The notes beneath the pieces were generated by a model that was not told the DNA's origin, did not search any database, and worked only from the letters and a program-made list of their open reading frames with translations. From positions 1,618,642 through 1,682,641 of the forward strand of contig CAWGSZ010000009.1 of assembly GCA_963825295.1 (NCBI GenBank): a stretch of DNA of 64,000 bases, given 5' to 3'. Source of the stretch: Vicinamibacterales bacterium. Its GTDB lineage: Bacteria; Acidobacteriota; Vicinamibacteria; Vicinamibacterales; JAMQPK01. Below are positions 3,694 to 31,000 of this stretch, piece after piece. The translations under genes and the position numbers were made by a program. Within the stretch, counting starts at the first letter, position 1; each line of letters starts with the position of its first letter.

Positions 3694-3728
3694 CGACCCT
3701 TCGCACTCCCGCCGCTGCAAACGCTCCG

Positions 3729-4282
<554 letters not shown>

Positions 4283-6432: not shown

Positions 6433-6435
6433 GTC

Positions 6436-11319: not shown

Positions 11320-11340
11320 AATTCCAAAAGACAAACCAAA

Positions 11341-11409: not shown

Positions 11410-11411
11410 TC

Positions 11412-14400: not shown

Positions 14401-16019
14401 AAGTAGTCGTATAGCAGGCGCGGCTTGTCCGAGAGCACCGCCAGCGCGGTGTCGGTGCCCATCGAGCCGATCGCCTCTTCGCCGTTGAGCGCCATCGGCG
14501 CGAGCAGAATCTTCAGATCCTCCTGCGTGTAGCCGAACGTGCGCTGCCGGTTCACCATCGTGTAGTGATCGGGCAACGGCAGGAGCGGCGCGGGCTTGAG
14601 GTCCTCGAGCGCCACCATGTTCTGGGCGAGCCACTTCGCGTAGGGCTGCGCCGACGCCAGCTCCCGCTTGATCTCCTCGTCCTCGATGATGCGTCCCTGC
14701 TCGGTGTCGACCAGGAAAATCTTGCCCGGGTGCAGCCGTTCCTTGAGCAGGATGTTCTCGTCGGGCACGTCGAGCACACCGACTTCCGACGCCATGATGA
14801 CGAGGTCGTCCTTCGTCACGTAGTAGCGCGACGGACGAAGCCCGTTGCGGTCGAGCACGGCGCCGATCACCTTGCCGTCGGTGAACGCGATCGACGCCGG
14901 GCCGTCCCACGGCTCCATCATCGTCGCGTGGTACTCGTAGAACGCCTTGCGCTCGGGCGACATCGTTTCGTGGCCGGCCCACGGCTCGGGAATCATCATC
15001 AGCACCGCGTGCGGGAGCGAGCGGCCGGTCATGACGAGGAACTCGAGCACGTTGTCGAAGGTCGCCGTATCGCTGCCCCCTTCGCGGATGACCGGCAGAA
15101 CCTTCTGCAGATCGTCGCCGAGGACGTCCGATTCGCACATCGCTTCGCGCGCGTGCATCCAGTTGATGTTGCCGCGCAGGGTGTTGATCTCGCCGTTGTG
15201 CGCGATATAGCGATACGGATGCGCGAGCGGCCACGACGGGAACGTGTTGGTGCTGAAGCGCTGATGCACCAGCGCGAGCGCCGACGTGACGTCCGGATCC
15301 ATCAGATCGGGAAACATCGTCTCGATCTGATCGGCGATGAGCATGCCTTTGTAGATGAGCGTGTTCGCCGACAGGCTGGGAATGTAGAAGTACTTCTTGT
15401 CGGTGCTGGCGATCGGCAGCTTGTCGACCTCGTGCTCGATGCGCTTGCGGATCACATAGAGCTTGCGCTCGAACTGGAGATCCAAAAGGGGTCGGGAGGG
15501 TTTTTCGGTGGGATCGGGCGAAAAACCCTCCCGACCCGTTTTCGATCCCGCACCCACGAATAACTGCTTGAAGTACGGTTCGACCGCCGCGGCCGATGCC
15601 CCGACCAGGCGATCGTCGGTCGGCAGATCGCGCCAGCCGAGCAGCACCTGCCCTTCCTCGTGGACGACTTTTTCGACGACCGCCTCAATCGTGGCGCGCG
15701 CGGATGGATCGCGCGGCAGAAAGACGCAGCCCGCACCGTATTCGCCGGCGGGCGGCAGCTCGATCCCGAGATTCAGCGCCTGCTTCCGGAGAAACGCGTC
15801 CGGCATCTGAATAAGGATGCCGGCGCCATCACCGGTGTTCACCTCGCAGCCGCACGCACCGCGATGGAGCAGGTTGACGAGCAACTGCAGCGCCTGCCGC
15901 ACGATGCGATGCGAGCGCACACCTTTGACGTTGACGACGAACCCGACGCCACACGCGTCCTTCTCGTAGGCGGGGTCGTAGAGGCCTTGCGCGGGCGGAC
16001 ACCCGGGATCGCGATCCAT
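11412..16019 (-). CDS. gltB: Glutamate synthase large subunit
   Basis: 1535 aa, intact. N-terminal CGVGFV amidotransferase start, an FMN/Fe-S central domain and a C-terminal [13 protein letters not shown] beta-helix domain. Confidence 0.95.
15484..15542. repeat. Palindromic RPE/MITE-like element lying in-frame inside gltB
   Basis: GGGTCGGGAGGGTTTTTCG-N11-CGAAAAACCCTCCCGACCC has 19-nt perfect arms at 15489..15537. It encodes ...[16 protein letters not shown].... A second copy is at 36901..36950. Confidence 0.7.
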
Positions 16020-16073
16020 AAAGAAGGACTAGTTATCTGGTACCCCTAGCCATAAGTAAAATACAATTTTTAC

Positions 16074-16089
16074 ATTCGATGTATCGAAT
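16074..16089. promoter_or_regulatory. 16-bp palindrome ATTCGAT-GT-ATCGAAT in the AT-rich gltB upstream region (candidate operator)
   Basis: Read directly, 55-70 nt upstream of the gltB ATG (16019) within the only AT-rich stretch of the spacer. No known regulator box recognised. Confidence 0.25.
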
Positions 16090-16138
16090 TTCCTGATGTA
16101 TTGGGTCCAAGCCCCTAATGGTCTGCGTTTTCATCGTG

Positions 16139-16930
16139 TTATGGCCGCACTGCGGCCACCCATGTCAGGCTTCCCTCCACCTGTTCGACCGAAATCGGGC
16201 GGAAACCCGCGGCGTCGAGTTCCGCGGTCAGCGCCTGGCGCGTGAAGTGATGACGATAGCGCAGGGTGCGGCCCGGCCGGTGACGCCAGAACACATCGCC
16301 GGGCTCCGGCGACCAGTCGGCGCGTGCCGCGCGCGCGCTCGTGCGAAGCAACCACGAGCCGAGCGTCGACTGACGTGTGAACCCGTGATAGCTCACCAGT
16401 ACTCGCCCTCCGGGCGCGAGATGATCCGCGACGCTCGCGAGCGCCGCGGCACGGCGTCGCGCGCCGCGAACGAGTGAATAGCAGCCGTTGGAAAAAATCA
16501 CGGCGTCGTAGCGTCGGTCGAGCGCGGCGGACTCGATCGCCCCGGTATGCAGCGCGGCCGCAGCACCGTGTCGCGCGAGATGCGCGCGCGCGATCGCGAT
16601 CGCCTGCGGCGAGTGGTCCAGACCCTCGACGTCGTATCCCAGACGGCCCAGCGCCAGCAGATCGCGGCCGGCGCCGCAGCCCACGAGCAGCACGCGATCG
16701 CCGGCGCGAAGATGGCCCCCGAAGAACTCACGCTCGTCCGGCGACAGCCCGGCATCCACGTCTTCATCTGAGATGCTGAAGTCGCTCCACTCGTCGCGCG
16801 CGGCCGCATCGAGATCGTCGGCACGCAGGAGACCGGCGGCGAGATACAGAAAAGCGTTTCCGAGTGGTCCGGGAAGGGCGGACGAGGCCCAGAGCGAGCG
16901 GTGCAGCGAGGCTCGACTTACGCCGAGCAC
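16139..16930 (-). CDS. Class I SAM-dependent methyltransferase
   Basis: VLLVGCGAGRDLLALGRLGYDVEGLD (motif I) sits inside track ORF 16139..17425. The start is placed at GTG 16930, overlapping the reductase stop; this start is uncertain. Confidence 0.6.
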   Translation of the reverse strand: MLGVSRASLHRSLWASSALPGPLGNAFLYLAAGLLRADDLDAAARDEWSDFSISDEDVDAGLSPDEREFFGGHLRAGDRVLLVGCGAGRDLLALGRLGYDVEGLDHSPQAIAIARAHLARHGAAAALHTGAIESAALDRRYDAVIFSNGCYSLVRGARRRAAALASVADHLAPGGRVLVSYHGFTRQSTLGSWLLRTSARAARADWSPEPGDVFWRHRPGRTLRYRHHFTRQALTAELDAAGFRPISVEQVEGSLTWVAAVRP

Positions 16931-18756
16931 TCGCCTTCTTGAATTTCGGGATTGAACTGCGCGGTCTCCGCGAGGTCGACGTAGTCGTCGGCAACCGCCG
17001 ATGACGAGGTCATCAGCTCGAGATCGGACAGGACTTCTTTGACGCGAGCGACATCGACGCGCATGAAAAACGCGGTCGCGGTCTCGCCGTCGTGCTTGTC
17101 GGAGACATAGAGATCGAGCAACCGCTCGAGCGCGGCTGTCAGCCGGCGCGCGGGAACTTTCGCGGCGAGACGGCCGAAGCGGACGGCATCGCCGTCGGGC
17201 CCGCCGCCCACCATGACGAAGTACTGTGGAATCGCCCGGCCGGCCACTTTGCGGACACTGCCCTGGAATCCGAGGCCGGCGATGTGATGGCGTCCGCACC
17301 CGTTCGGGCACCCGCTGATCTTGATCTGCAGATCGGGCGCCTTGGCGATGAGCTCCGGGTGCTCGCGCAGATGATCGCCGAGGAACCTGCCGAGCCCGCG
17401 CGACTGCGTGACCGCGAGCTTGCACGACTCGGCGCCGGGGCAGCTCGTCACGTCGGCAATCGTGCCCGCGTCCGCCAATCCCAGTCCTGCCGCCGCAAGC
17501 TGCCGGTACAGCTCGGGCACGGCATCAGTCGGCACCCAGCGGAAGACGAGGTTCTGCTCCGCGGTGATACGCACCATGCCATCGGCGAACGCGATCGCGA
17601 GATCGCCGAGGATGCGCATCTGCTGGCTCGTGAAGTCGCCGAGCGTAATCGTGGCGTTCACGACGAAGTAGCCGCTCTGCTTTTGCTTGCGCACGTTGGT
17701 GCTGAGCCAGTGCGAGTAGTCGCCGTTCATCGTCGGCAGCATGGGCCGCACCTGCGGGACGATGCCGGGACCGGTTACTTGCGAGCTCATCGCGCGCGAC
17801 ACTGTTTCGAGAATCGGCGGCGACTCGATGCGCCGCCACGCCGGCGCCTGCTCGGTGGGCGGACACTCGGGATCGAACGGCAGACTGGCGCCGCCCGCCG
17901 ACCTGAACTCAGCCAGCTTGGTGTTGTACTCGGCGAGGAACCGATCCCACCCGATCGATTTGATGAGGAACTTGAGGCGGTTCGCCTGCTTGTGCTTGTA
18001 GTCGCCGAACTGGTGAAAGACGCGAATCACCGCCTCGGCCACGTTGAAGATCTCGGAGGCCGGCAGGAACTCGTGCACGGGCGCCGCCGACTTCACCATG
18101 ATCGACGTGCCGCCGCCCACGACCACGCGGAAACCGCGCCTACCGTCCTCGATCGCGGCGCGATAGCCCAGGTCGTGCATGCCGAGGAGCGCGTGATCCA
18201 CGTCGGTGCACCCCTCGAACGCGATCTTGAACTTGCGAGGCAGCGACGAGCTGAGCGGATGGCGCAGGAGATATCGCGTCATCGCTTCCGAATATGGCGT
18301 GACGTCGAAGAGCTCCGTGGGCGAGACACCGGCCTCGGGGCAGCACGTGATGTTGCGCACGGAATTGCCGCAGGCCTCGCGCGTCGTCAGGCCGGCCTCG
18401 GCCAAAAGGCGCATGGCAGGCTCGGCGTCGTGCAGCTTGACGAAATGAAACTGGATGTTCTGACGCGTCGTGATGTGCCCGAAGCCGCGAGAAAAGCGCT
18501 CGCCGACCTCGGCCAGCGCCTCGAGTTGCGGCTGCGTCAAGACTCCCTGTGGAATCTTGATGCGCAGCATCTGCACGTCTCCGGCCTGACGCTGGCCGTA
18601 TGTGCCGCGGACGAGCCGGAACATGCGCCACTGGTCAGGGGTCAGCTCGCCGCTTTCGAACTTCTCGAGGGTGGCGACGAACTCGTCGATATCGGCTTCG
18701 CTCGCAAATGAGAGCCGGGTTCTTCCAAGCGTCTTGGGATCGTCAACTGCAGCCAT
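16918..18756 (-). CDS. Sulfite/nitrite reductase haemoprotein (sirohaem-[4Fe-4S], ferredoxin-type)
   Basis: 612 aa. Cysteine clusters TSCPGAESCKLA and ISGCPNGCGRHH are typical of NiR/SiR 4Fe-4S/sirohaem sites, and the domain repeat is duplicated. Confidence 0.85.
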   Translation of the reverse strand: MAAVDDPKTLGRTRLSFASEADIDEFVATLEKFESGELTPDQWRMFRLVRGTYGQRQAGDVQMLRIKIPQGVLTQPQLEALAEVGERFSRGFGHITTRQNIQFHFVKLHDAEPAMRLLAEAGLTTREACGNSVRNITCCPEAGVSPTELFDVTPYSEAMTRYLLRHPLSSSLPRKFKIAFEGCTDVDHALLGMHDLGYRAAIEDGRRGFRVVVGGGTSIMVKSAAPVHEFLPASEIFNVAEAVIRVFHQFGDYKHKQANRLKFLIKSIGWDRFLAEYNTKLAEFRSAGGASLPFDPECPPTEQAPAWRRIESPPILETVSRAMSSQVTGPGIVPQVRPMLPTMNGDYSHWLSTNVRKQKQSGYFVVNATITLGDFTSQQMRILGDLAIAFADGMVRITAEQNLVFRWVPTDAVPELYRQLAAAGLGLADAGTIADVTSCPGAESCKLAVTQSRGLGRFLGDHLREHPELIAKAPDLQIKISGCPNGCGRHHIAGLGFQGSVRKVAGRAIPQYFVMVGGGPDGDAVRFGRLAAKVPARRLTAALERLLDLYVSDKHDGETATAFFMRVDVARVKEVLSDLELMTSSSAVADDYVDLAETAQFNPEIQEGECSA

Positions 18757-18780
18757 GATTCGGGTTAATTGGGCATTATC

Positions 18781-19977
18781 TCACTTTTTCCCAGCGAGGA
18801 TCTTCCACGCGCCGTGCACGTTGCGGTGCACGTAAAGCGCCGGCAAGAGCCACGGGCCCAATGGCTTATCGCGGAGTCCATAGGCGCCGAGCATGTAGCC
18901 GGGGCTGGGCAGTAGCACCTCGCGCAGCAACCGGGCGCGGTCCCCCAGCCGTGGCAACGCGCGCAGGCTGGCAAGGGTCTCGTGGTGCCACCTCCGTTCA
19001 GACGCCAGATACCGCGCGGAGGGTTCCGGCGCCGCCTCGCGGTTCAGCCCGGCGATGAGATCGGCGTCAACCGGCGTGTTGAACAGCGCCCTCGCCTGCT
19101 CCAATGCGCGGCGGCATATCGCCGTGACCTTCCTGGCTCGAGCCAGCTCCTGGAACTCGTTCCGCTCGGCCGCCGACAACCCGGACGCGAGCAGGTGGAT
19201 GTCGAGGATCCACAGCAGCCGCTCGTCGTTGCGGTGATGCATCGCAGGATGCACGCACGACAGAAGGAGCGCATCCACGCGGCACGGGGCGAAGGCCGAC
19301 TCGCCGAGCGCCGGTACGGCGATCGCGCGTCGCAGCAGCGTGTCATACGGCAGCAGGTCGGCAAAGACGGGCTGCGTGCTGATGTTCCAGTGTACGTCGA
19401 AGGCGTGGACCACGCCGAATCGATCGCGCTGCTGAACCTCGAACTGCGAAAGCAGCTCGTGGCATTGCACGGTTTCCACATACGAAAGCGATCGCATCAC
19501 CTGGCGAGCCGCCTCGACGTCTGCGGCGGAGACCATGAGGTCGGTATCGGCGCGAGAGCGCGATGCCGGCGAGTCGTACATGGTGTAGGCGAGCGGCGTC
19601 CCCTTGAGAAGAATCGGACGGATCCCGGCATCCGCCAGCGCGGCGACCACGCGACGGATTTCTGCTTTGCGCAGAAGCTCTTCTGCGGCACGCGTGCGGG
19701 CCACGTCCGAGAGCTCTTCCCACACCTGCCGGGGCCAGCCGGCAGTCGAGAAACGGATCCCGGATCCGTTTTCATCCGGTGCCCCAGAAAACGGATCCGC
19801 AATCCGTCTCTCGGCAGAATCAAGGCTCGACAGTCGCTCGAAACAGAGACCCTCGACCTCGTGCTCGCGGCACAGGTCGAGGAACTGTTGCGCGTCGAGC
19901 CCCAGATCGCTCCACCGCGTGACGTCGCCGCGCAGGAACGCTGCCAACAGCTGCAGCGGCTCACGTGAGGACGGCAT
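18781..19977 (-). CDS. Nucleotidyltransferase-family protein (PF14907-like), lasso-cluster tailoring candidate
   Basis: 398 aa. The central region LLKGTPLAYTMYDSPASRSRADTDLMV...FDVHWNIS resembles the uncharacterised nucleotidyltransferase family found in kinase-type lasso clusters. Its start overlaps the B2 stop by 17 nt. Confidence 0.6.
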   Translation of the reverse strand: MPSSREPLQLLAAFLRGDVTRWSDLGLDAQQFLDLCREHEVEGLCFERLSSLDSAERRIADPFSGAPDENGSGIRFSTAGWPRQVWEELSDVARTRAAEELLRKAEIRRVVAALADAGIRPILLKGTPLAYTMYDSPASRSRADTDLMVSAADVEAARQVMRSLSYVETVQCHELLSQFEVQQRDRFGVVHAFDVHWNISTQPVFADLLPYDTLLRRAIAVPALGESAFAPCRVDALLLSCVHPAMHHRNDERLLWILDIHLLASGLSAAERNEFQELARARKVTAICRRALEQARALFNTPVDADLIAGLNREAAPEPSARYLASERRWHHETLASLRALPRLGDRARLLREVLLPSPGYMLGAYGLRDKPLGPWLLPALYVHRNVHGAWKILAGKK

Positions 19978-20371
19978 AGTCCTCGAGTTCCGGCAGGTGG
20001 CCGATCACGACTTCTCCCCTGCATTCAACCCACGCGTGCGCCTCCAGCACGGTGGATGCGCCACTGCGCGCGCCGATACGCAACGTCGCGTCGTATCCGT
20101 GGCGCCGCAACATCGTGTACGCCGTCAGCGCTTCCGCAAGACACGTCGTTCCCGGCAGTCGTCGCGTGACGGCGGCGGCAGCCCATGTGATTCTCGACAG
20201 GATGTCCCGCTGGTTGGGGCTCGATTGTGCGCGGCGATCGAGTCGGCGAGTGAGCTCGGGGAACGACAACACGTGGAGACCGATCCGCACCCACACGATG
20301 AGCACAAATGCCTCTGCCAGACGCGCCCTGTCGGCAGGGGTCAAGCGCGCAAAGATGCGAAGCGTGTTCAT
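19961..20371 (-). CDS. Lasso peptide leader peptidase B2 (transglutaminase-core cysteine protease)
   Basis: MNTLRIFARLTPADRARL...TTCLAEALTAYTMLRRHGYDATLRIGAR...EAHAWVECRGEVV carries the Cys and His of the transglutaminase-like core. The ATG at 20371 overlaps the upstream stop (ATGA). The longer track ORF reaching 20530 overlaps the GT-C gene. Confidence 0.75.
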   Translation of the reverse strand: MNTLRIFARLTPADRARLAEAFVLIVWVRIGLHVLSFPELTRRLDRRAQSSPNQRDILSRITWAAAAVTRRLPGTTCLAEALTAYTMLRRHGYDATLRIGARSGASTVLEAHAWVECRGEVVIGHLPELEDYAVLT

Positions 20372-21945
20372 TCGGTTCTCGTGCCTGTTGGATCGTAGCC
20401 GACCGGACATTCTGGCGGCAGCCGATAGAGATCGGTCGATGGAAATCCGACATCCCACGACGCGCGCAAGGGACCGAGGCGATTCAAATGAAGTGGCGGC
20501 GCCGCATAGCTGGCGACGCGCACGGCGCACGCGTACTCGCCAGGCACATCATCGCCCGTCTGCCAGATGAAGAATCTCGACGAGCCGGGCGAAGCGCCGC
20601 GGCGATGGCCCGGTGGCTGAAACGCGTCGAGATGCGTGGCCCACCGCGCCCAGTCGGCATGGCTCGACGCGACAAACGATCGATAGGAGGAGCCGGCCCC
20701 CTCAACTGAAAAAAAGTACAACGCGTCAGGTCCAACGACCGAGGACCCCTCGGGGACCTGCCGGCGGATGAATTCGGTGAGGGGAACCGGGTCGCGCGCC
20801 TCCCAGGTGGCCGCAATGCGAAGGTCACGAACCCCGGCCACCGCAAGGTTGACCGCCGCCAACGCAGCGACGATGGCAGCCAGCCCAGCCGTGGGAAGAC
20901 CGAACGCGCGCCGCGGCAACGCGAGAACCACGGCCAGGACCGGAACGGCGAAATACATGCCCAGCGAGAACGTGATGTTCATCCCGCACACAACGATCAC
21001 GCCGGTGGCAATTGTGGCCGCGAGCGCGAAGAGCGCCGCCACGGCCCGAGTGTCGTCACCGCGAGAACTCCGGACGAGATGCCAGAACCCGAGCACCCCA
21101 CCGGCAAGCGCCGCGGCGGGCGTCACCACCGACGACCAGTTGAATGCGAACACACGCGTCGCGGCCTCGAGCATCGCAACATCCGTGTCCTCGCGCGTCA
21201 GGATGAAGAACATGCTGCGGGCCCACGGAACAGGACCACCGTGCTCGAGGAGAGTCCACAGCACGAACCCGGTTGTGAAGACGCCCCCAGCCATCACGAC
21301 CTGCCTGAACGCGCCAGGCCGACGCGTCATGAATGCGGTCGCGCACGCGCACACCAAGAAAGACGCGACAAATGGATAGCTGCGCGGTGTCGTCAGCGCC
21401 GCGAGAAGCAGGAACCCTCCAGCGATCGATCCCGCCATCGCCCCTCGCGTCGGAACCAGCAACCCACGGGCGAATGCCGCAAGCGCCATCAACTGAAACC
21501 CGACGGCAAGCGTTTCCATGTCGCCGCCGGTCGCCGCCGCCCCGATTTCGGGCGTGAGCCATATCAGCACGATCGCCAGCAACCATCGCGTACGGTCGCC
21601 GCTCAAGCACGACGCCAGCCATGCGGCGCCTGCTCCGACCAGCAGCACACCCAGCAAACCGGGAAGCTTCGAGCTCTCGATCGAGAACCCGAACACCGCG
21701 AACGACCACGACATGAGCGTGAAGAAAACAGGACCGTAGAAAGGCAGGTGATCGACCGCGGCCGGCGAGAACCAGGTCGTCGATGGCACGCCGCTGCCAT
21801 CGATCTGCAGCGAACGCGCGATGGACGCATAGAGCTGTGCGTCCGGCCAGGGCGTCGAAGCCCGCCCACGTGTGACGTAGAAGCTCGCGAGAATCAGGCA
21901 CGCCGTCACGGCCAGCGCCGCCGGACCGATGCGCGCCGCGGTCAT
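20368..21945 (-). CDS. GT-C-fold (ArnT/PMT-like) polytopic membrane protein embedded in the lasso operon
   Basis: 525 aa. About 10-12 TM helices with an early loop motif PWPDAQLYASIARSL, plus a roughly 150-aa C-terminal soluble domain. It is paralogous in architecture to 25827..27066, 46623..48374 and 60223..61564. ATGA overlaps on both sides. Confidence 0.55.
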   Translation of the reverse strand: MTAARIGPAALAVTACLILASFYVTRGRASTPWPDAQLYASIARSLQIDGSGVPSTTWFSPAAVDHLPFYGPVFFTLMSWSFAVFGFSIESSKLPGLLGVLLVGAGAAWLASCLSGDRTRWLLAIVLIWLTPEIGAAATGGDMETLAVGFQLMALAAFARGLLVPTRGAMAGSIAGGFLLLAALTTPRSYPFVASFLVCACATAFMTRRPGAFRQVVMAGGVFTTGFVLWTLLEHGGPVPWARSMFFILTREDTDVAMLEAATRVFAFNWSSVVTPAAALAGGVLGFWHLVRSSRGDDTRAVAALFALAATIATGVIVVCGMNITFSLGMYFAVPVLAVVLALPRRAFGLPTAGLAAIVAALAAVNLAVAGVRDLRIAATWEARDPVPLTEFIRRQVPEGSSVVGPDALYFFSVEGAGSSYRSFVASSHADWARWATHLDAFQPPGHRRGASPGSSRFFIWQTGDDVPGEYACAVRVASYAAPPLHLNRLGPLRASWDVGFPSTDLYRLPPECPVGYDPTGTRTE

Positions 21946-22238
21946 GACGGCTCGCGAATCTCCACCAGCCCGCGTTCCGCGAGATGGCTCAGCAGCGTGC
22001 AGACGTCTTCTCGACAGCGTACCGCGTCGACGTCATAGAGCTCGACGATCGCGCTCACGATCTCGTCAATGGTGACCGTGCGCGCCAGCAGCTTCCAGAT
22101 CTCGGCGCCGGCGCCATCGAGGCCGTAATAGGTGCCGTCGTTCAGGTTCAACATCACGACTTCGGCGCCCAGCTCGCTCGCCAGCACGTCGTGAGCCATC
22201 GCAACGGTCGAGGATGAAGGTATGTCGGAGCGAGCCAT
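21942..22238 (-). CDS. PqqD-like RiPP recognition element (lasso B1)
   Basis: MARSDIPSSSTVAMAHDVLASELGAEVVMLNLNDGTYYGLDGAGAEIWKLL...VCTLLSHLAERGLVEI follows the PqqD fold pattern. The start is chosen at 22238 so that it does not overlap the divergent cyclase. Confidence 0.7.
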   Translation of the reverse strand: MARSDIPSSSTVAMAHDVLASELGAEVVMLNLNDGTYYGLDGAGAEIWKLLARTVTIDEIVSAIVELYDVDAVRCREDVCTLLSHLAERGLVEIREPS

Positions 22239-22275
22239 CGATGATCGCAAAGTATTATAAAGTCCGAATCGAATC

Positions 22276-24204
22276 ATGAACGGCATCACAGGCGTGTGGA
22301 ATCTCGACGCGCGCCCAATCGAGCGGGGCGTGCTCGCCACGATGAGCGCCCGTCTCGCCCACCGCGGGCGTGACGGCGAACGCCTGTATCTGTCCGGCCC
22401 CGCGGGTGTCGCCTGTCAGCACTCCTGGGTCACGCCCGAAGAACAGGGAGAACACCTCCCGCTCGTCGGCGCCTCCGGCGCGGTGCTGGTGATGGACGGC
22501 CGCATCGACAATCGACACGATCTCGTCACCCGATTGGGGCTCGACGCGACGGCCAGCGACGCCCGCTGCGTGCTGGCGGCGTACGAAGCCTGGGGCGAGG
22601 GGTTCGCCGCGCGCCTCAACGGCGATTTCGCGCTCGCGATTCTCGACGCCGGCGCCGGACGCCTCATCCTGGCGCGGGATGCGCTGGGCGTTCGAGCACT
22701 CTATTACTTTCACGGTGCGGGGCTGTTCGCGTTCGGATCGGAGATCAAAGCGCTTCTGGCTCATCCCGATATCCCCGCCGAGCCCAACGACGAGGGCGTC
22801 GCCGACTTCATGCTCGTCGGTGCCCGGCCGCTCGATCAGCAGGACCTCACCTGCTTTCGCGGCATCTCCGCCGTCATCCCCGCGCACGTCGTCGTCGCAA
22901 CGCGTCGCGGAACATCCAGTCATCGCTATTGGAACTTCGACCCCCAGGCTCGATTGCGTCTGAAGACGTCCGAAGAATATGTCGAGGCGTTCCATGAGCG
23001 GTTCGCCACGGCCGTGAAACGACGCACGCGTTCGGCGTTCCCGGTTGCGTTCTCGGTCAGCGGCGGCCTCGATTCGTCGTCCATCATCTGCCAGTCGGAG
23101 ACGCTGCGGCGCAACGGCGAGCTGCCGGCCCCGTCAATCGCCGGCCTTTCCTACGTATCCGATCGCGTGAATACCGACGAGCAGCAGTTTCTTCGTGAGA
23201 TCGAAGCTAAATTCGATCTGCAATTCGACCGCTTTACTATCGAAACGCGGACCGGCCTCGTCGAGGGCGCGCGGGAACAGGTATCGGCTATCGAAGCGCC
23301 ATTTGTGGATTACATGTGGGGCGTCACGCGCGAGGTGCACGTACGGGCCGCGGCCACGGGGGCACGCTCGCTGCTGTCGGGTCACTGGGGCGATCAGATG
23401 CTCTTCTCGAGCGCGTATCTGATCGACTTGTTCCGCCGAGGGGCCTGGCGGTCGATCTGGCGTCACACGCGCGAGTACGGCCGGTATTTCGGCGACGAGG
23501 AGACCGCGAGACGCCGGCGCCTGCTGCTCGTCGACGCCGCGCGGTACCACGTGCCGCGCTCGCTTGCAACGCCGCTCAAGTGGCTTCGAATGCGGCTGTT
23601 CGCGCCACCCCGGCCGAAGGCGTGGTTTGCACCTTCATTCCTGGCCACGGCCCTGCAGCATCGCTACAAGCTGGCGACACTGGACGGTCCGTTCCACTCG
23701 GCCCACGCCCGCGCCGTCTACATCGAGGCGCGCTCGAAGTACCAGGTACAGTGCATGGAGTGGAACAGCAAGGTCGGCGCACGGTACGGGCTCGAGGCGG
23801 CGTTTCCATTCCTCGATCGCGATCTCATCGCGTTTCTGATGGCGATTCCCGGAGAGATGCACGCGCCTGATGGCGTGCCGCGCGCCCTCTTACGTGAAGC
23901 GATGCGCGGCATCCTGCCCGATTCGATCCGCGCGCGCACCTGGAAATCGGATTTCAGCAGCTTCGTGACCCAGGGGCTCAGCGACGATGCTGACGAAATC
24001 CTGCGAACGATGACGGGCGACTGTCTCGGCGTGCGCTTCGGCTTCCTCGACGGCAACAAGCTCGCGCCGGAGCTCGCTCGCCTGGCCGAGTCACTGACCG
24101 CCGATGACTGCACGGATAGCTGGGATATGGCCGACACGTATGGCCTCGAAATGTGGCTTCGAGTATTCTTGGGCGGACACGTCCTGAACGAGGAACACGC
24201 ATGA
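22276..24204 (+). CDS. Lasso peptide cyclase (asparagine synthetase B homologue, C protein)
   Basis: 642 aa. AsnB-like Ntn and synthetase domains (SVSGGLDSSSI PP-loop). Residue 2 is Asn (MNGITG), not the catalytic Cys of a true AsnB. The stop overlaps the precursor start. Confidence 0.8.
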   Translation: MNGITGVWNLDARPIERGVLATMSARLAHRGRDGERLYLSGPAGVACQHSWVTPEEQGEHLPLVGASGAVLVMDGRIDNRHDLVTRLGLDATASDARCVLAAYEAWGEGFAARLNGDFALAILDAGAGRLILARDALGVRALYYFHGAGLFAFGSEIKALLAHPDIPAEPNDEGVADFMLVGARPLDQQDLTCFRGISAVIPAHVVVATRRGTSSHRYWNFDPQARLRLKTSEEYVEAFHERFATAVKRRTRSAFPVAFSVSGGLDSSSIICQSETLRRNGELPAPSIAGLSYVSDRVNTDEQQFLREIEAKFDLQFDRFTIETRTGLVEGAREQVSAIEAPFVDYMWGVTREVHVRAAATGARSLLSGHWGDQMLFSSAYLIDLFRRGAWRSIWRHTREYGRYFGDEETARRRRLLLVDAARYHVPRSLATPLKWLRMRLFAPPRPKAWFAPSFLATALQHRYKLATLDGPFHSAHARAVYIEARSKYQVQCMEWNSKVGARYGLEAAFPFLDRDLIAFLMAIPGEMHAPDGVPRALLREAMRGILPDSIRARTWKSDFSSFVTQGLSDDADEILRTMTGDCLGVRFGFLDGNKLAPELARLAESLTADDCTDSWDMADTYGLEMWLRVFLGGHVLNEEHA

Positions 24205-24362
24205 AACGCAAGCCAGAGCAACCGGCGACGCCCAGACGGGTCTATCGGACCCCGTCGCTGAAGGTTCACGGCGATTTCCGCAAGGTGACCGCCAGCAAGG
24301 GTGGCACGAACAACGACGGCACCGGAAAACCGCGGACGAAGAACAACAACCCGAACCAGTAG
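24201..24362 (+). CDS. Lasso peptide precursor (53 aa)
   Basis: MKRKPEQPATPRRVYRTPSLKVHGDFRKVTASKGGTNNDGTGKPRTKNNNPNQ. It carries a YxxPxL leader motif, Thr at leader position -2 and Asp at predicted core position 8. ATGA overlap with the cyclase; the kinase starts 4 nt after its stop. Confidence 0.7.
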   Translation: MKRKPEQPATPRRVYRTPSLKVHGDFRKVTASKGGTNNDGTGKPRTKNNNPNQ

Positions 24363-24366
24363 TCGA

Positions 24367-25326
24367 ATGCCCGTGCGATACCGTCTGTACGGGCTCACCA
24401 TCGAGTGCGACGTTCCGCTTTCCTGCCCCCGGGATTCCCAAGACAGCACCTCTGACGTTCGACTGACACGCGCCGCCGCCAAGCGGTTCGACCAGGTGCG
24501 TACGATGGCCAGCATTCCATCACGTGCGGCGCAATGGTTCGAATGCGCGCGGCTCGAAGATGGCTCCACATACCTGCGATGGACGCGGCTCTTCGAGTTC
24601 CTCGTGGCGCCGGACGGACGAACGATCGAGTGCCGCCCGCTCGAACACGCCACGCGTCACGCCTTGACGACGTATCTGATGGGACAGGTGCTGTCGTTTT
24701 CTCTGCTCTCGTTCGGGTACGAACCGCTGCACGCAACGGCCGTTGTGATCGACGGCTCGGCGGTGGCGTTTCTCGGAGACTGCGGCGACGGAAAGTCGAC
24801 GCTCGGAGCGGCACTCGTCGCGCGCGGATTCCCGCTCCTCACCGACGATGTGCTGACGCTGAAGTCCGACGGCAACCGGTTCCTGGCTTATGCCGGACCG
24901 GCGCGGCTCAAGCTGTTTCCGTCGGTCGCGCGCTCGCTGCTGGGACGATCGGGAACGCACCGGCTGAATCCAGGGACGCGCAAGCTCGTGCTGCCGCTCT
25001 CGAGCCGTCGCGCCTGGTCTGATGCCGTCCCGCTGGAGGCGCTGTACGTCCTGTGCGGGCCGGCACGCAGCCGACGCGCCTCGCGCGTCACGCTCACCCC
25101 GCTGACGGGTCAGCGTGCGTTTCTCGAAGTGATTCGCTCGACGTTCAACCTGATCCAGGTCGACAAGGCACGGCTCGAGAATCAGTTCGGGATGGCAGTG
25201 GAACTCGTGAAGGCGGTGCCAGTGACGCGAATTACCTACCCAAGGAGACTGTCGCGTCTGGAAGAGGTGTGCGAGGCGATCCTGGGACGTCAAAGAGGCT
25301 CAACGTCAGATTGTCGTTCGGCATGA
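24367..25326 (+). CDS. HPr-kinase-related (HprK-like) lasso peptide kinase
   Basis: 319 aa from ATG 24367 (MPVRYRLYGLTIECDVPL). P-loop FLGDCGDGKSTLGAALVARGFPLLTDDV resembles HprK/P C-terminal-domain relatives found in lasso clusters. Confidence 0.65.
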   Translation: MPVRYRLYGLTIECDVPLSCPRDSQDSTSDVRLTRAAAKRFDQVRTMASIPSRAAQWFECARLEDGSTYLRWTRLFEFLVAPDGRTIECRPLEHATRHALTTYLMGQVLSFSLLSFGYEPLHATAVVIDGSAVAFLGDCGDGKSTLGAALVARGFPLLTDDVLTLKSDGNRFLAYAGPARLKLFPSVARSLLGRSGTHRLNPGTRKLVLPLSSRRAWSDAVPLEALYVLCGPARSRRASRVTLTPLTGQRAFLEVIRSTFNLIQVDKARLENQFGMAVELVKAVPVTRITYPRRLSRLEEVCEAILGRQRGSTSDCRSA

Positions 25327-25837
25327 TCTGGCCCAGCAACGTGGCACCGGTCGCGCGGCCGCGCGTCGGCTCGTGCCGGACAAGCCAGTTGCCAAGAATC
25401 AACGCCGCAATCGCGAACGTGACATCGGAGCTGTACTGCTTGCAGTTCGCGCCCCAGTAGATTGCCGACGGAGACAGCGAGAAAAGCGCGAGGGCCAGAA
25501 GCGCCGCCCCGCGTGAAAGGTAGGCACGCGCCGCCATGTAGAAGAGCGGCAGCGACACGAGACCGCACACGAACGCCGGAAACCGCAGCACGCGCTCGGA
25601 ATCGCCGAACATGAGCACGAACGCTTTGGTGACGAATACAAATCCAACCGGTGCCGCCTGGTGGAACTCGTAGGGGCCGAGCAGATCCCAGCCCGACTTG
25701 CGCAGAATGTTCAGCGCCAGCGCCGCCTCGGGCCACCAGAACGATCAGTCGAACAGATACATCTGAAGGCGCAGCCCCGCGCCCACCGCGACGAGCGCGG
25801 TGACCGCCATGATGACGCGGCGGTTGTCAGACACCAT
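25232..25837 (-). pseudogene. GT-C (ArnT/PMT-like) gene remnant: in-frame TGA and 3' truncation
   Basis: MVSDNRRVIMAVTALVAVGAGLRLQMYLFD-TGA(25745..25747)-SFWWPEAALALNILRKSGWDLLGP...LRFPAFVCGLVSLPLFYMAARAYL... stays in one frame. Family-like sequence fades near 25370, where it runs into the 3' end of the convergent kinase gene. Confidence 0.55.
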
Positions 25838-27066
25838 CGCGCCTCTCCGGCACACGCGCGAGCGCGACAGCCGCATAGAAGAAGAACACGAACTCCATCG
25901 GTGCGCGGTATCGCGTGGCGGGCACATACACGGCGTAGACCACGACGAAGACGCAGGCGATCGCCCACAGCGCAAAGTCGTGCGCGAGCACGTGGCGGCG
26001 CATGTAAATGCCAGCCACAGCCGCGAGCATCACGAACGACGACGCCAGGGTGTGGCTGATGACTTCAAGTCGCGGACGTGTCACTGGCGCCTCGACAATG
26101 ACCTTGTCGGGCGGTGCGAGCGTCACGCGCGTCTCCGGACCAGAGACGTACAGCGGGATCAGCCGGGGCGAGAGGAAGATACCCCGCGTTCGCGAGCTTT
26201 TCCTTGATCGTCCCAACCGGCGAGGCTTTCATGTGCTCGATCGCGGCGCTCGTCAGGTACGCATCGATACGCGGAGTGTAGTCCGCGCTGCCCGGCACGA
26301 TGTCGGGCCGGGCCGTCGTTGCCAGCTCATAGGCCACCGGCTCGAGCAGGTCGAGATCGTGGTCGGGCAGCAGCGCCGCCGCGTATGGCGAGTTTCCGAT
26401 GAAGAGGTTGATCCCGTTCCGGGTCGGCCACCAGGATCCGTTCGCCCGGTGATTCCGCATCCACCATGGCAGCACGAGGATCATCGCCACACCGGCGACC
26501 ACCGCGGCGTCGCGTGCCTGGCCGCGCCGCACCAGGACAGCCCCGACGAGCACAATGAGCGGCAACACCATGGCCCGGCTGAGCACGCTGAGCCCGAGCC
26601 ATGCGCCGGCGATCGCGGCAGAGGCGACGCCCGCGATCGACGCGGCCGCGCCGGCAAACCCGACGAGCAGCAGGGTTGTGAGTGACGAATCGCCGACCGT
26701 GGCCGCATGCCGGACCAGCAGCGGATACCCCGCGAACAGCAGTCCGGCGAACACGCCGGCGCGCGCCGATCCCGTCCGGCCGAGGACGAGCCGGTACAGC
26801 AGCACCGCGCCGAGTGAGGCGACCGCAATCTGCATCAGCTGGACGGCCAGCACGGAGTCGCGCGCGATGAGCCGGGCGCCGGCAAGGAACAACGGATAGA
26901 GCGGTTCGAAGTCGGTCACGGGAAGGCCGTCGATCGTGAACGTTCCGGTTCGAACCAGACTGCCCGACAACGCCCAGTACTGGCTTTCGATTGGAGGATG
27001 AATCAGCAACAGGTAGGCGAGACGCGGAAGAGCTGCGGCACAGAACAGGATGGCCGCCGGTTTCAT
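25827..27066 (-). pseudogene. GT-C (ArnT/PMT-like) membrane glycosyltransferase, frame broken once
   Basis: The N-terminal roughly 295 aa (MKPAAILFCAAALPRLAYLLL..., ATGA-coupled to thrB) and the C-terminal TM part (IFLSPRLIPLYV...YRAPMEFVFFFYAAVALA, ORF 25827..26216) are in different frames. Removing one C from the CCCC run at 26182..26185 joins them (…KLANAG-IFLSPRL…). Confidence 0.6.
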
Positions 27067-27998
27067 ATCACGCGCGCACCCTGACTGCTCACCTTTCCTG
27101 CGAACAGATCGCTTTCGAGGCCGGCCGCCGATCGGAATGCGGTCTGCATGGCCGCGCCGATCCGTTCGGCGGCGATCACGCTCTCCGCAAACGCAAACAC
27201 CGAGGGTCCGGACCCGGCGATCGAACACCCCAGCCCTCCGGCCTCGAGCGCGGCCCTCTTGACCGCATCAAATCCCGGAATCAGCCGCGAGCGGAGCGGC
27301 TCGACCAGACGGTCTTCGACGCTGCGTCCCACCAGCCCCAGATCACCACGGCCAAGACCCGCGACAAGCGCCGCCACGTTGCCCAGATTCGGCACGATGT
27401 CGTCGAGCGCGTACGTACGCCCCTTCACCAGACGCCGCGCCTCGGCCGTGGATACTTCGCAATGGGGGTGCACCACGCTGATGTGCAGCGTGTCGGGGAA
27501 CGGCAGCCGAATGACCTCGAATGGTTGATAGCTGCGGACGAGCACGATGCCCCCCATGACGCTCGGCGCCACGTTGTCGGCATGGGGCGTCCCCGATGCG
27601 GCGCGCTCCCCTTCCATCGCACTCGCGACAACGTCGGTCTCGGCGAGCGGCCTGCCCAGCAACTCGTTGACGGCGACGGCGCCGGCCGCGCTGCTCGCGC
27701 CAGAGCTGCCAAGCCCGCTCGCCAGCGGCATCTGCTTGTGCAACCAGAGCCGCACGCCTCGATTCGCGCCGGTGCGTCGCAGGACATCGGCCGCGGCACG
27801 TCCCACCACGTTCTTGCCGGCATCGCGGCTCAAGAGTCCACGATCGCCCGTGACCTCCACGATTTCGATGCCGGGGCGATCGGTCAGCTCGGCCTCGAGC
27901 TCGTCGCCGGGCCGGCTGAGCGCCAGTCCGAGCACATCGAATCCTGGCCCGAGATTCGCTACGGTTGCGGGTGCGAAGACGCGAATTCGTCGGTTCAT
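27063..27998 (-). CDS. thrB: Homoserine kinase
   Basis: 311 aa. The N-terminus VFAPATVANLGPGFDVLGLAL and the GHMP motif PLASGLGSSGASSAAG are present. Confidence 0.9.
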   Translation of the reverse strand: MNRRIRVFAPATVANLGPGFDVLGLALSRPGDELEAELTDRPGIEIVEVTGDRGLLSRDAGKNVVGRAAADVLRRTGANRGVRLWLHKQMPLASGLGSSGASSAAGAVAVNELLGRPLAETDVVASAMEGERAASGTPHADNVAPSVMGGIVLVRSYQPFEVIRLPFPDTLHISVVHPHCEVSTAEARRLVKGRTYALDDIVPNLGNVAALVAGLGRGDLGLVGRSVEDRLVEPLRSRLIPGFDAVKRAALEAGGLGCSIAGSGPSVFAFAESVIAAERIGAAMQTAFRSAAGLESDLFAGKVSSQGARVI

Positions 27999-28081
27999 TC
28001 GAAGTTTCGAGAGAGTATCACGGCATTTCGATTACAAAATCGAAACGGCGTGACACGGAATGGCACACTGAGGTTCCGGGC

Positions 28082-28591
28082 ATGATGAGGCAGTTGTCGA
28101 TCACAATCGGCCTTCTCGCGCTGTTCACCGCGAGCGCGTCTTCACAGGTGGTCCAACCTGTGGGCTCGCCGGGCGCCCCCACCACGGTGGGTACGTCCGT
28201 GAAAAAGGGCGAGGCTCTGATCAATGGCACCGCCGCCGATACCAACTCGGTGCCGCTCCCGAATGCGACCGTGCGCCTGCGCAATCTCGCCGACAACCGG
28301 ATCGAACAGGTGGCGATCTCGGATCAGCTCGGGAAGTTCAGTTTCATCGCACGGCCCGAGATTCCATACGTCGTCGAAGTGTCCGATCGCCTGGGTCACC
28401 TGCTCGCTGTCGGGGACGTCATCATCGTCCAGGCCGGCGAGGTCGCAGCGGCCGCGGTGATGATCCCCTCGCGCCTGCCCGGCATAGCCGGCTTGTTCGG
28501 CCAAACGGCCAACTCCGTGCTCTCGGTGGCATCGTTGGCGGGCATGGCGGTCGTCGATCCAGACGACCCGCCGCTCAGCCCCGAAAAATAG
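28082..28591 (+). CDS. Secreted carboxypeptidase-regulatory-like domain protein
   Basis: Signal peptide MMRQLSITIGLLALFTASASSQ followed by INGTAADTNSVPLPNATVRLRNLADNRIEQVAISDQLGKFSF (CarboxypepD_reg-like beta-sandwich pattern). The track ORF starts earlier, at 27965. Confidence 0.5.
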   Translation: MMRQLSITIGLLALFTASASSQVVQPVGSPGAPTTVGTSVKKGEALINGTAADTNSVPLPNATVRLRNLADNRIEQVAISDQLGKFSFIARPEIPYVVEVSDRLGHLLAVGDVIIVQAGEVAAAAVMIPSRLPGIAGLFGQTANSVLSVASLAGMAVVDPDDPPLSPEK

Positions 28592-28729: not shown

Positions 28730-31000
28730 TTGCTAAGCGAAATGGACCCGAGTCAACGGCCCACCGCCCTTACCGCCGCGCGCCAGTCCGCATCATCTGC
28801 CGCCTCGAAACATGGGCTGTTTCCGACGGACTCGGATACGCATCTGCTCGACCGGCTGAACGCGATCTACAAGTACCGGTACGTCGTCGTCACGATCTTC
28901 CTGCTCGTGTTGCTGGCGGTCACCATCCGGACCTACACCACCACGCCGATGTACCGTTCGACGACCAGCGTGCTCATCGAGGAAGACCGCACGTCTTCCG
29001 TCGCCGGCTTCAGCACACAGACACCCAGCGACTACACGCAGGACTCCGAGCCCTACTACCAGACCCAGCTTCGCATCCTGACCGGGCGCGAGCTTGCCAC
29101 CCGCGTCGCGGACAAGCTGAAGCTCGCCAGCGTCCCGGAGTTCAACGGTCAGGGGGCGGCGCGTACGGGACTCGCCTCGGTGCTCGACACGATGAAGCAG
29201 CAGGTGAAGGGCCTCGTGCGTCAAGCCACCGGAGCGGCCCCGTCAAGCACGCCGGCCCCAAAGCCGACCTCGGCCGATCTCGCCAACGGGTTCCTCGGTG
29301 CGGTCCAGGTGGAGCAGATTCGAGGGAGCCGGCTGTTCAACGTCTCTGTTACGTCGTCCGATCCCCAGTTCGCCGCCCGGGCGGCCGACACGCTTGCGTC
29401 GGAGTACGTGCACTTCAATCTGGAGTACCGCACCGACGCCACGCGCAAGAGTTTGGACTTCCTCGCCGGCGAAATCGCCAAGCAGCAGAAGAAGGTCGAA
29501 GACAGCGAGCGCGCGATGGCGGAATACCGCGAGACGAACAACGCGCTGTCGCTCGAGGATCGCCAGAACACCGTCGTCGCGAGCCTGAATCAGGTGAACG
29601 ACCAGTACACGCGCATCAGGACCGAGCGGATTCAGAAGGAAGCGCTCTACAACCAGATCAAGTCGCTGCCGCCGGCGTCGGTGGGCGACGCGCCGGCCGT
29701 GTCCTCGAACCCGGTGGTGCAGAGCCTGCGCACCCGGCTCGCCGAGCTGCTGCGCCAGAAGGTGCAGCTCAACGAACGCTACGGTCCCAAGAACCCGCAG
29801 GTGATCGAGAACGAAAACGCCATCATCGACACGACCAAGCAGCTGCAAGCCGCGCTCAATGCGGCGGTGCAGGCGATCCGCAGCGAATACGAGACGGCGC
29901 GCGCGACCGAAGCGCGCCTGGCCGGCGAGCTCAAACAGTCGCAGAGCGCCTCGATGGATCTGAACCGCAAGAGCGTCGGCTACACGGTGCTCGAACGCGA
30001 GGCTCAGAGCAATCGCGCGGTGTACGAAGCGCTGCTGCAGCGGCAGAACGAGCTGCAGATCGTGAGCAACAGCGGCGGCAACAACGCGCGCCTGATGGAT
30101 CGCGCGGTCGTGCCGGATACGCCGTTCACGCCCGACGTGCGCCGCAACTATCTGCTGGGCACGCTGGCCGGGCTGCTGCTCTCACTCGGACTGGTGCTCG
30201 CGATCGACTACCTCGACGACACCGTGAAAACGCCCGAAGACATCACGCGCCGCCTCAAGCTGCCGTTCCTCGGGCTGGTGCCGGCGGTCAAGGGCAACAA
30301 TCACCCGATCCTGTCGCAGGAAGTGCCCCACGAATTCGGCGAAGCGTTCCGCGCGCTCCGCACGTCGCTGGTGTTCAGCAGCGGCACCGAGGGCACGCGC
30401 GTCATCGGTTTCACGAGCGCCCAGCCGCTCGAGGGGAAAACGACGACCGCCTGCAACATGGCGATCGCGCTCGCCTATGGTGGTTCGCGCGTGCTGCTCA
30501 TCGACGCCGACATGCGGCGCCCGAGCGTCTCGCGCACCCTGGGCATCGAGAACAACATCGGATTGTCGCACCTGCTTACGGGACAGGCGACCGCACGACA
30601 GGCGATTCGCAGCACGAGCGTTCAGAATCTCTGGGTGATGACCGCGGGGCTCACGCCGCCGAATCCGTCCGAACTGCTCGCGTCGGACAGGATGAAAACG
30701 CTCATCTCGAACGTGCAGTCGGGGCCGTTCGACTGGGTCCTCATCGACACGCCGCCAGTGCTGGCGGTGACCGATGCCGTGATTATCGCGCCGTGGGTCT
30801 CGGGCGTGGTGTTCGTGATCGGATCGGAGATGACTCAGCGGCGCCTGGCCGAACGGGCGGTCGAGACGCTGATGACCAGCCGTCCGCACGTGCTCGGCGC
30901 GGTGCTCAATCGCGTTGACATCATTCGCAACAAGTACTATTACTCGCGGTACTACGGCTACAAGTACAAGAACTACTACGTCAAATCCACCGCGGCATAG
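28730..31000 (+). CDS. Polysaccharide co-polymerase / tyrosine autokinase (Wzc/GumC-like)
   Basis: 756 aa. Wzz-like N-terminus with a TM helix, a long coiled-coil periplasmic region and a second TM helix. C-terminal P-loop kinase (TSAQPLEGKTTTACNMA, LLIDADMRRP, VLIDTPP) with a Tyr-rich tail YYYSRYYGYKYKNYY. Confidence 0.9.
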   Translation: MLSEMDPSQRPTALTAARQSASSAASKHGLFPTDSDTHLLDRLNAIYKYRYVVVTIFLLVLLAVTIRTYTTTPMYRSTTSVLIEEDRTSSVAGFSTQTPSDYTQDSEPYYQTQLRILTGRELATRVADKLKLASVPEFNGQGAARTGLASVLDTMKQQVKGLVRQATGAAPSSTPAPKPTSADLANGFLGAVQVEQIRGSRLFNVSVTSSDPQFAARAADTLASEYVHFNLEYRTDATRKSLDFLAGEIAKQQKKVEDSERAMAEYRETNNALSLEDRQNTVVASLNQVNDQYTRIRTERIQKEALYNQIKSLPPASVGDAPAVSSNPVVQSLRTRLAELLRQKVQLNERYGPKNPQVIENENAIIDTTKQLQAALNAAVQAIRSEYETARATEARLAGELKQSQSASMDLNRKSVGYTVLEREAQSNRAVYEALLQRQNELQIVSNSGGNNARLMDRAVVPDTPFTPDVRRNYLLGTLAGLLLSLGLVLAIDYLDDTVKTPEDITRRLKLPFLGLVPAVKGNNHPILSQEVPHEFGEAFRALRTSLVFSSGTEGTRVIGFTSAQPLEGKTTTACNMAIALAYGGSRVLLIDADMRRPSVSRTLGIENNIGLSHLLTGQATARQAIRSTSVQNLWVMTAGLTPPNPSELLASDRMKTLISNVQSGPFDWVLIDTPPVLAVTDAVIIAPWVSGVVFVIGSEMTQRRLAERAVETLMTSRPHVLGAVLNRVDIIRNKYYYSRYYGYKYKNYYVKSTAA

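Follow-up and report, generated by a model that had tools for sequence, protein, structure and literature searches.

How does a lasso-peptide gene cluster come to hold, inside one of its operons, a polytopic membrane protein of the GT-C fold, in a neighbourhood that encodes no lasso-type ABC exporter, and what would such a protein contribute to the peptide? The question is raised by positions 18781-25326 of a 64,000-nucleotide stretch (the whole of which is called the window here) from the genome of a member of the Vicinamibacterales (Acidobacteriota). The present data establish these positions as a genuine cluster for lasso-peptide biosynthesis, of class-II type and with a split B. Taken whole, it is best explained, and we think probably so, as a cluster of the kinase/nucleotidyltransferase sub-type that has lost its exporter and in which the GT-C gene is an accessory. 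The parts conserved across the family are the cyclase, precursor and kinase genes (C, A and K) on one strand and the B1, B2 and nucleotidyltransferase (N) genes on the opposite strand, together with a gene for an S-adenosylmethionine (SAM)-dependent methyltransferase (MT). The cluster works like the lasso sub-type represented by paeninodin, pseudomycoidin and Bsf, without two of the features that define it, namely the acceptor residue and the exporter. Few clusters for phosphorylated or phosphoglycosylated lasso peptides have been characterised, and the present family is widespread in the Vicinamibacterales, a dominant and largely uncultured soil order.

Genes of the cluster

All of the core genes are supported by both hidden Markov model (HMM) matches and motifs in the open reading frame (ORF) listing and the Pfam and NCBIfam scans, and they lie in two divergent units with a 37-nt AT-rich spacer between B1 and the cyclase. 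The cyclase (22276-24204, plus strand, 642 aa) is an asparagine-synthetase homologue that starts MNGITG, Asn2 replacing the glutaminase Cys2; its best NCBIfam match is NF033535, the lasso peptide isopeptide bond-forming cyclase (2.2e-106, 357 bits), its matches to PF00733 (Asn_synthase, 1.5e-37) and GATase_7 (5.6e-24) both exceed their cutoffs, and its ratio of nonsynonymous to synonymous substitution rates (dN/dS) is 0.13-0.15. The ATG of the precursor gene (24201-24362, plus strand, 53 aa) overlaps the cyclase stop (ATGA), and 4 nt past the precursor stop comes the likely start, ATG 24367, of the HprK-like peptide kinase (24367-25326, plus strand, 319 aa), as in the related locus L001. The kinase has a His (in LHATAV) upstream of the P-loop GDCGDGKST and a TDD (in LLTDDV) downstream of it, in agreement with the H-G-G-G-K-S-D-D set required in BsfK (PMC10368454). 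Its profile matches are weak (TIGR04352 HprK_rel_A, 1.8e-11; PF07475 Hpr_kinase_C, 1.8e-5; the HPr kinase 3tqf in the PDB, 9.5e-6), and it has more than 750 homologues. Many of these homologues (P0049-P0162; L021) bear the precomputed Pfam label PF27840 'ScmC' (SynChlorMet cassette protein), a family that the window kinase did not match in the local Pfam scan; the labels link the kinase family to other PqqD-associated peptide-maturation cassettes.

On the minus strand, B1 (21942-22238, 98 aa) is a PqqD-type recognition element for ribosomally synthesised, post-translationally modified peptides (RiPPs), having a PF05402 match of 2.1e-19 (70 bits vs a cutoff of 23) and a score against NF033536 (lasso_PqqD_Bac) of 74.8 bits, slightly short of the cutoff of 80. 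B2 (19961-20371, ATG at 20371, 136 aa) is a leader peptidase of the transglutaminase-core Cys protease type (NF033537, 5e-28, 98 bits vs a cutoff of 33; PF13471, 4.8e-22) with the motifs CLAEALT and HAWVE and a dN/dS of 0.26-0.41. The PsmN/BsfN-like nucleotidyltransferase (18781-19977, 398 aa; PF14907, 7.7e-35) contains a D-x-D motif (ADTDLMV) that agrees with the residues required in PsmN (PMC6993621); a sequence search found no relative of it among PDB sequences, its dN/dS is 0.20-0.23, and the gene is kept in L001, L006-8, L019-22, L027, L033 and L038. The gene for the 525-aa polytopic protein lies between B1 and B2 (20368-21945), overlapping each by 4 nt (ATGA), and B2 overlaps N by 17 nt.

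An earlier note on this DNA had proposed these assignments from the letters alone, and for the cyclase with Asn2, the kinase 4 nt beyond the precursor, and the divergent B1, 525-aa protein, B2 and PF14907 genes across the spacer they hold: motifs and coordinates agree, and the searches with PF05402, NF033537 and NF033535 support B1, B2 and the cyclase. The overlaps of 4-17 nt are likewise present as it described, whereas as evidence of functional linkage they are weak, because in relatives the housekeeping gene thrB is chained to the lasso genes by 4-nt overlaps too. Other observations also count against the overall reading of the locus: the NF033535 score of the cyclase falls under the curated cutoff of 525, the HprK_rel_A and Hpr_kinase_C scores of the kinase fall under theirs, and the lasso product is a predicted one, as are the site at which it is cleaved, the size of its ring and the place of its phosphorylation.

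The pseudomycoidin cluster, psm, from Bacillus pseudomycoides and the related paeninodin cluster, pade, resemble the window cluster in that B is split into B1 and B2, the cyclase is of the Asn-synthetase type and the precursor is the substrate of an HprK-like kinase (PMC6993621, PMC9266682); they also have a PF14907 'nucleotidyltransferase' beside B2, the DxD motif of PsmN recurring in the window N. They differ in their acceptor, a C-terminal Ser where the C-terminal residue of the window family is variable, and in their layout, which is colinear and ends with an ABC exporter whereas the window cluster is divergent and has none; the window cluster adds a SAM methyltransferase and a GT-C to the psm/pade set and belongs to an acidobacterium, not a Firmicute. 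Bradymonas sediminis has the bsf cluster (BsfK, BsfN, BsfB1/B2, BsfC and BsfD), which resembles that of the window in having a Gram-negative host and the combination of kinase, N and split B, and in which B1 stimulates phosphorylation and leader removal (PMC10368454). BsfK has the same H...GxxGxGKS...DD kinase motif and acts on an internal residue and not on the C-terminus, like the prediction made below for the window. However, the target of BsfK is Ser3, where the window has Gly3, its leader has Ile(-2) in place of the canonical Thr(-2) of the window, and bsf possesses an ABC exporter, BsfD, and neither GT-C nor methyltransferase. The SyanK-type cluster of Sphingobium yanoikuyae is again a Gram-negative kinase lasso cluster with a layout unlike the Firmicute type (PMC8498205); it differs in its polyphosphorylated C-terminal Ser acceptor, and no GT-C has been reported there. 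The view that characterised kinase lasso clusters are those of Firmicutes, taken in the earlier note, thus does not hold, SyanK being from Sphingobium and bsf from Bradymonas (PMC8498205, PMC10368454).

The precursor and its predicted product

The precursor consists of the leader MKRKPEQPATPRRVYRTPSLKVHGDFRKVTA and the core SKGGTNNDGTGKPRTKNNNPNQ. The leader motif Y15-R-T-P18-S-L20 fits YxxPxL, with Thr at -2 and Ala at -1, and the score against NF033521 (lasso_leader_L3) is 20.4, over the cutoff of 19, which bears out the leader motif that the earlier note gave for this small ORF. A comparison set of precursors from related loci (n=32) has in common the leader Y-R-x-P-x-L-K-V-H-G-D-F-R-K-L/V-T and the core pattern [S/T/A/…]-K-x-G-x-x-x-D-G-x-x-K-P-[R/K/S]-T-[K/R]-tail, in which K2, G4, D8, G9, K12, P13 and T15 are invariant and the C-terminus is variable. 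Because Thr occupies position -2, the core of the window precursor is predicted to start at Ser1, to be 22 aa long and to form an eight-residue ring between Ser1 and Asp8, with computed monoisotopic masses, unmodified, of 2298.106 for the linear core and 2280.096 for the lasso form. The predicted product would be a hydrophilic, cationic lasso of 22 residues. A ring closed from Gly3/4 to Asp8 would have too few residues, and Ser1 is the start that Thr(-2) favours; a core starting at Gly was therefore rejected. A start at Lys2, with a seven-residue Lys2-Asp8 ring, is a conceivable alternative; the precursor of the distant locus L043 is shorter by one residue. Some relatives have two tandem precursor genes with differing cores (L003, 11966-12315; L039, 897-1290).

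Neither of the known types of phospho-acceptor is found in this core. PadeK, ThcoK, SyanK and PsmK phosphorylate a strictly conserved C-terminal Ser (PMC9266682, PMC8498205, PMC6993621), whereas here that position is variable, the C-terminal residue being Gln in the window and Q, A, T, S, G, E or M in relatives. BsfK, from a cluster with K, N and an ABC exporter, phosphorylates Ser3 (PMC10368454), and the window core does not have the Bsf-type acceptor either (Ser/Thr3 with Ile/Val(-2) in the leader), position 3 being Gly in the window and Gly, Asn, Ser or Ala across relatives, and position -2 being Thr. Since these acceptors are missing and Thr15 is the sole hydroxyl residue invariant in the 32 precursors, Thr15 is the likely phospho-acceptor as predicted from the alignment, and the family would have to use an acceptor unlike both known types. 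Against this, the invariance of Thr15 partly reflects ascertainment bias, one of the two retrieval patterns having demanded ...GKP[RK]T; loci retrieved through the leader pattern still have the Thr, for example L032 with GKPST. For antimicrobial lasso peptides it would be unusual to find a core so well conserved across cyclases with only ~40-55% identity; this suggests a conserved target, possibly a fixed physiological one, as opposed to that of an arms-race antibiotic.

By analogy with the characterised relatives PadeK/ThcoK/SyanK, BsfK/BsfB1 and PsmN, we infer a pathway in which B1 would bind and present the YxxPxL leader, upon which the HprK-like kinase would phosphorylate the linear precursor, Thr15 being the likely site. 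The phosphate could then be decorated by N, as PsmN does when it links one hexose or two to the phosphate in a reaction for which its DxD motif is essential (PMC6993621). The peptide may subsequently be methylated by the methyltransferase, after which B2 would cleave past Thr(-2)-Ala(-1) and the cyclase would link the amino group of Ser1 to the side chain of Asp8.

A family fixed at one locus, without an exporter

The window cluster is a member of a large, vertically inherited family fixed at a single locus, which in many Vicinamibacterales contigs is bounded by gltB and a sulfite reductase gene on one side and by thrB and then a Wzz/Wzy exopolysaccharide (EPS) locus on the other. The same cluster occupies this locus in L001, L003, L006-8, L020-23, L027, L029 and L031-33; to L008, from a Vicinamibacterales/Acidobacteriota metagenome-assembled genome (MAG), the window is 92-94% identical. 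The majority of the sister clusters (L021, L022, L027, L029, L031 and L032/33) have neither a GT-C nor an exporter, the gene order being N-B2-B1 >< C-A-K >< MT-thrB in L021 and L027 and N >< C-A-K >< [B2-MT fusion]-B1-thrB in L022.

Neither an ABC_membrane/ABC_tran fusion nor an S9 isopeptidase is encoded within ~15 kb of the window cluster, as the earlier note had it. The sole ABC ATPase of the window (41385-42782) was considered as a lasso exporter and rejected, being a Wzt polysaccharide-export ATPase, and two ORFs of ~600 aa at 4495-8277, considered as ABC exporters, encode in the one case an HD-GYP/GAF protein and in the other an S8 peptidase. In the distant locus L043, the cyclase of which is 56% identical, C-A-K is followed directly by a gene (3264-5030), overlapping that of the kinase at its end, for a canonical 588-aa lasso-type ABC exporter (ABC_membrane+ABC_tran), and exporter loss thus marks the family at the thrB locus and predates the gain of the GT-C. 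Because the family has lost its ABC exporter, the lasso peptide presumably either stays intracellular or exits via an unlinked route. The proposal that a GT-C has taken the place of the exporter in the operon is not sustained, since most sister clusters are without both and one relative, L023, deleted its GT-C and kept the rest.

The cluster bounds of 18781-25326 given in the earlier note are also probably too narrow, as a gene for a class I SAM-dependent methyltransferase lies outside them, beyond the sulfite reductase gene (16139-16930, minus strand; Methyltransf_23/25/12/11). In L022 a single gene (10950-12206, minus strand) encodes a fusion of 418 aa in which residues 3-138 are B2 (Transglut_core3) and residues 181-408 a class I methyltransferase, to which the window methyltransferase is 39% identical; the methyltransferase domain of the fusion also has a weak PCMT/PIMT match (3.5e-5). 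At least seven other loci, including the P0005 contig, L021, L027, L029, L031 and L032, have an orthologue either in the B1/B2 operon or next to it, those of L029, L031 and L032 lying inside the operon. Because it is fused to B2 in the one case and placed in or near the B1/B2 operon in the others, the methyltransferase probably belongs to the cluster as a tailoring gene.

The GT-C-fold protein and its possible roles

The 525-aa protein with its C-terminal periplasmic domain has no Pfam or NCBIfam match and hence belongs by sequence to no named GT-C family (PMT, PMT_2, GT87, STT3 etc.); a profile of 37 homologues found no match among PDB sequences, and Pfam scans of the same 37 returned scattered weak matches to the GT-C clan (PMT, PMT_2, GT87) in one or two of them, so that fold comparison alone identified the protein. 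An AlphaFold2 model built from the homologue alignment (pLDDT 92.5, pTM 0.93) was compared with the PDB by Foldseek, and ranks 1-28 were all GT-C enzymes, the best being ArnT (5f15, E 1.6e-5, TM 0.57) and the others including STT3/OST, DPY19, ALG9/12, PglB, AftA/B/D, EmbB, PimE and Pmt4. As modelled, then, the protein is a GT-C-fold enzyme, in line with the earlier call. With ArnT, PMT and STT3-PglB it shares the fold of a multi-helix membrane domain followed by a C-terminal periplasmic domain; its conserved acidic residues past the first transmembrane helix (TM1), D35 and D65, are candidates for the catalytic acidic residue that GT-C enzymes have in their first extracytoplasmic loop. It differs from them in having no significant sequence match and in belonging to a small family specific to the Vicinamibacterales. 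Across the family alignment D65-H66-x-x-F-Y-G-P, D255, C473 and C513 are invariant and D35 nearly so (>=90% conserved). In the model D35 and D65-H66 sit just past TM1, and the soluble domain at the C-terminus contains C473 and C513, as would suit a position in the periplasm. The family has 134 representatives at E ≤ 1e-30 among 1.84 billion, and those in the genome scan come nearly all from Vicinamibacterales/Acidobacteriota MAGs, with two loci from one MAG labelled Bifidobacteriaceae. The literature searched contains no description of a GT-C within a lasso cluster or any RiPP cluster, in keeping with the earlier description of the cluster as an uncharacterised variant.

The gene is predicted to be co-transcribed with B1, B2 and N and is held by purifying selection (dN/dS 0.17-0.20, close to the values for N and B2). 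As an insertion it is accessory and confined to a lineage, drawn from a Vicinamibacterales-specific GT-C family that has standalone members too. Four gene orders combine it with the lasso genes: B1-GTC-B2-N in the window, L001/2, L006-8 and L020; thrB-B1-GTC-B2 >< K-A-A-C, then N, in L003; thrB-PMT2-GTC-MT-B1-B2 >< K-A-C on the P0005 contig; and C >< GTC1-B1-B2-N-GTC2 in L019. The two paralogues of L019 (198-1781 and 3629-5227) share 47% and 49% identity with the window protein and bracket B1-B2-N within one operon. In L023, by contrast, which has 91% DNA identity to the window, the 1,510 nt equivalent to window positions 20415-21924 are missing. The GT-C gene has been cut out cleanly, leaving between B1 and B2 an in-frame fusion of its first and last codons (22 codons, MTTVRICSECPVGYDPTGTRTE, at positions 423-494); B1, B2, C, A and K have all been retained whole, and the L023 precursor has the substitution N7A. 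Because L023 dropped the GT-C and retained the rest, the GT-C is dispensable for the retention of the remaining cluster.

It is possible, if no more than tentatively so, that the GT-C is a co-transcribed passenger, shuffled in from the neighbouring set of glycan and GT-C genes and functionally unrelated to the peptide. The locus is prone to rearrangement, methyltransferase, B1/B2, N and PMT_2 genes swapping order between relatives; thrB, too, is joined on by 4-nt overlaps of this kind; the GT-C is missing from most clusters and cleanly deleted from L023; and paralogues 38-50% identical to it stand in unrelated contexts (L004/10, L009, L011-15, L017, L018, P0011 and P0012), around which a relaxed tblastn (E up to 10) found no lasso genes. 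However, its linkage to B1/B2/N has survived four gene orders and one in-operon duplication, the lasso-linked copies cluster in one part of the neighbour-joining tree of the family, and among the lasso-linked genomes none was seen with the GT-C relocated off the cluster.

The structural comparison brings in another possibility, which we regard as unlikely: that the GT-C is an ArnT-like enzyme of self-protection or envelope remodelling, decorating lipid A or another envelope glycan so that the cationic lasso peptide neither harms its producer nor binds to it. ArnT is the best structural match, some homologues are named 'Ara4N transferase-like' by JGI, and the predicted core is indeed basic, carrying K2, K12, R14 and K16, while the one acidic residue is taken up by the ring (net charge ~+3 to +4 before phosphorylation); more PMT_2/ArnT-like genes and an EPS locus flank the cluster, and the standalone paralogues would suit a general envelope function. 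However, most producers of near-identical peptides are without the GT-C, L023 lost it and kept the peptide, and the flanking PMT_2 genes of the window itself are decaying. Such a role moreover presumes an antimicrobial and exported peptide.

In the role that we prefer, the GT-C would move a sugar from a polyprenyl-phosphate carrier at the periplasmic face, either onto the exported lasso peptide or onto an envelope acceptor connected with the action of the peptide. The first of these would make it a tailoring enzyme that glycosylates the peptide (at a Thr, Ser or Asn residue, or by lengthening the phospho-sugar installed by N), a role that we hold to be rather doubtful, about as probable as that of a passenger. 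The gene lies between B1 and B2 in the operon, it is lasso-linked in four arrangements including the tandem pair, and it is under purifying selection; its top folds include GT-Cs that modify peptides or proteins (STT3/PglB, DPY19 and PMT). The GT-C-positive cores are rich in Asn, usually with NN at positions 6-7 and a tail that contains several Asn, while GT-C-negative cores have 1-4 Asn and that of L023 is N7A; this correlation comes from few loci and is confounded by phylogeny, and there is no conserved N-x-S/T sequon. Glycosyltransferases also accompany other K/N lasso clusters: those of rumen Firmicutes often occur with GT2 enzymes (PMC7533575), and the pseudomycoidin authors remarked on a cyanobacterial K-type cluster with a glycosyltransferase (PMC6993621), which makes a glycosylation theme plausible.

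Several observations stand against a tailoring role. The majority of the sister clusters do without the GT-C, and L023 has discarded it cleanly. To reach a GT-C that faces the periplasm, the peptide of an exporter-less cluster would need some other export route. The standalone paralogues retain the same invariant residues as the lasso-linked copies. The linkage may, finally, be mere synteny, all arrangements being at one locus that holds other GT-C (PMT_2) genes and EPS genes. A fuller version of the tailoring role, in which the GT-C would be a dedicated RiPP-tailoring enzyme, perhaps extending the phospho-sugar laid down by K and N, and the peptide a conserved non-antibiotic envelope or signalling molecule of the Vicinamibacterales, seems to us improbable to a somewhat greater degree. 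Were GT-C tailoring true, it would be new enzymology, the first lipid-phosphate-sugar-dependent, periplasm-facing GT-C on a lasso peptide or on any RiPP. The interest of the locus is limited by the accessory nature of its striking GT-C element and by a peptide chemistry that is predicted only; the sub-lineage with the GT-C and its natural siblings without it, such as L023, nonetheless provide a good entry point and a ready comparison for the GT-C tailoring of a RiPP.

Spacer and flanking genes

The divergent spacer (22239-22275) contains the element AAAGTATTATAAAG at 22249-22262, which reads TATAAT on the minus strand. An element is conserved at the same position in L003, L020, L021, L022, L027 and L033, and where the window clade has AAAGTATTATAAAG, more distant relatives carry a perfect palindrome, GCAGTATACTGC, with TATACT on both strands. 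It may serve as a shared bidirectional -10 box or as an operator. A sigma-70 promoter scan of 16000-28200 returned no complete promoter, and terminator-like sites there were about as frequent as expected from shuffled sequence.

Two PMT_2-type GT-C genes flank the cluster on its kinase side, both on the minus strand. The first (25827-27228) has a weak PMT_2 match and is split, with an extra T near 26179 relative to L006; it is unbroken (412-466 aa) in L006, L008 and L020, and the split is either that of a pseudogene or a sequencing error. The second (25232-25744) is a remnant that matches PMT_2 (5.6e-9) over profile positions 15-88 only and has, relative to L006 (93% identical), an internal deletion of 886 nt with its junction at 25330/25331; the gene is intact (~487-490 aa) in L006 and L001 and absent from L023 and L020.

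Farther out, the S8 subtilase at 6436-8277 (minus strand), which has no evident tie to the lasso cluster, carries three C-terminal copies of (E/Q)EVIWGD. The adjoining EPS/glycan locus extends from 28730 to ~43000 and comprises Wzz-GNVR-BY-kinase (28730-31000), a Wzy-like polymerase, several GT4/GT2 genes, a Bac_transf-like gene and the Wzt ABC ATPase, and the same neighbourhood recurs in L003, L021 and L022.

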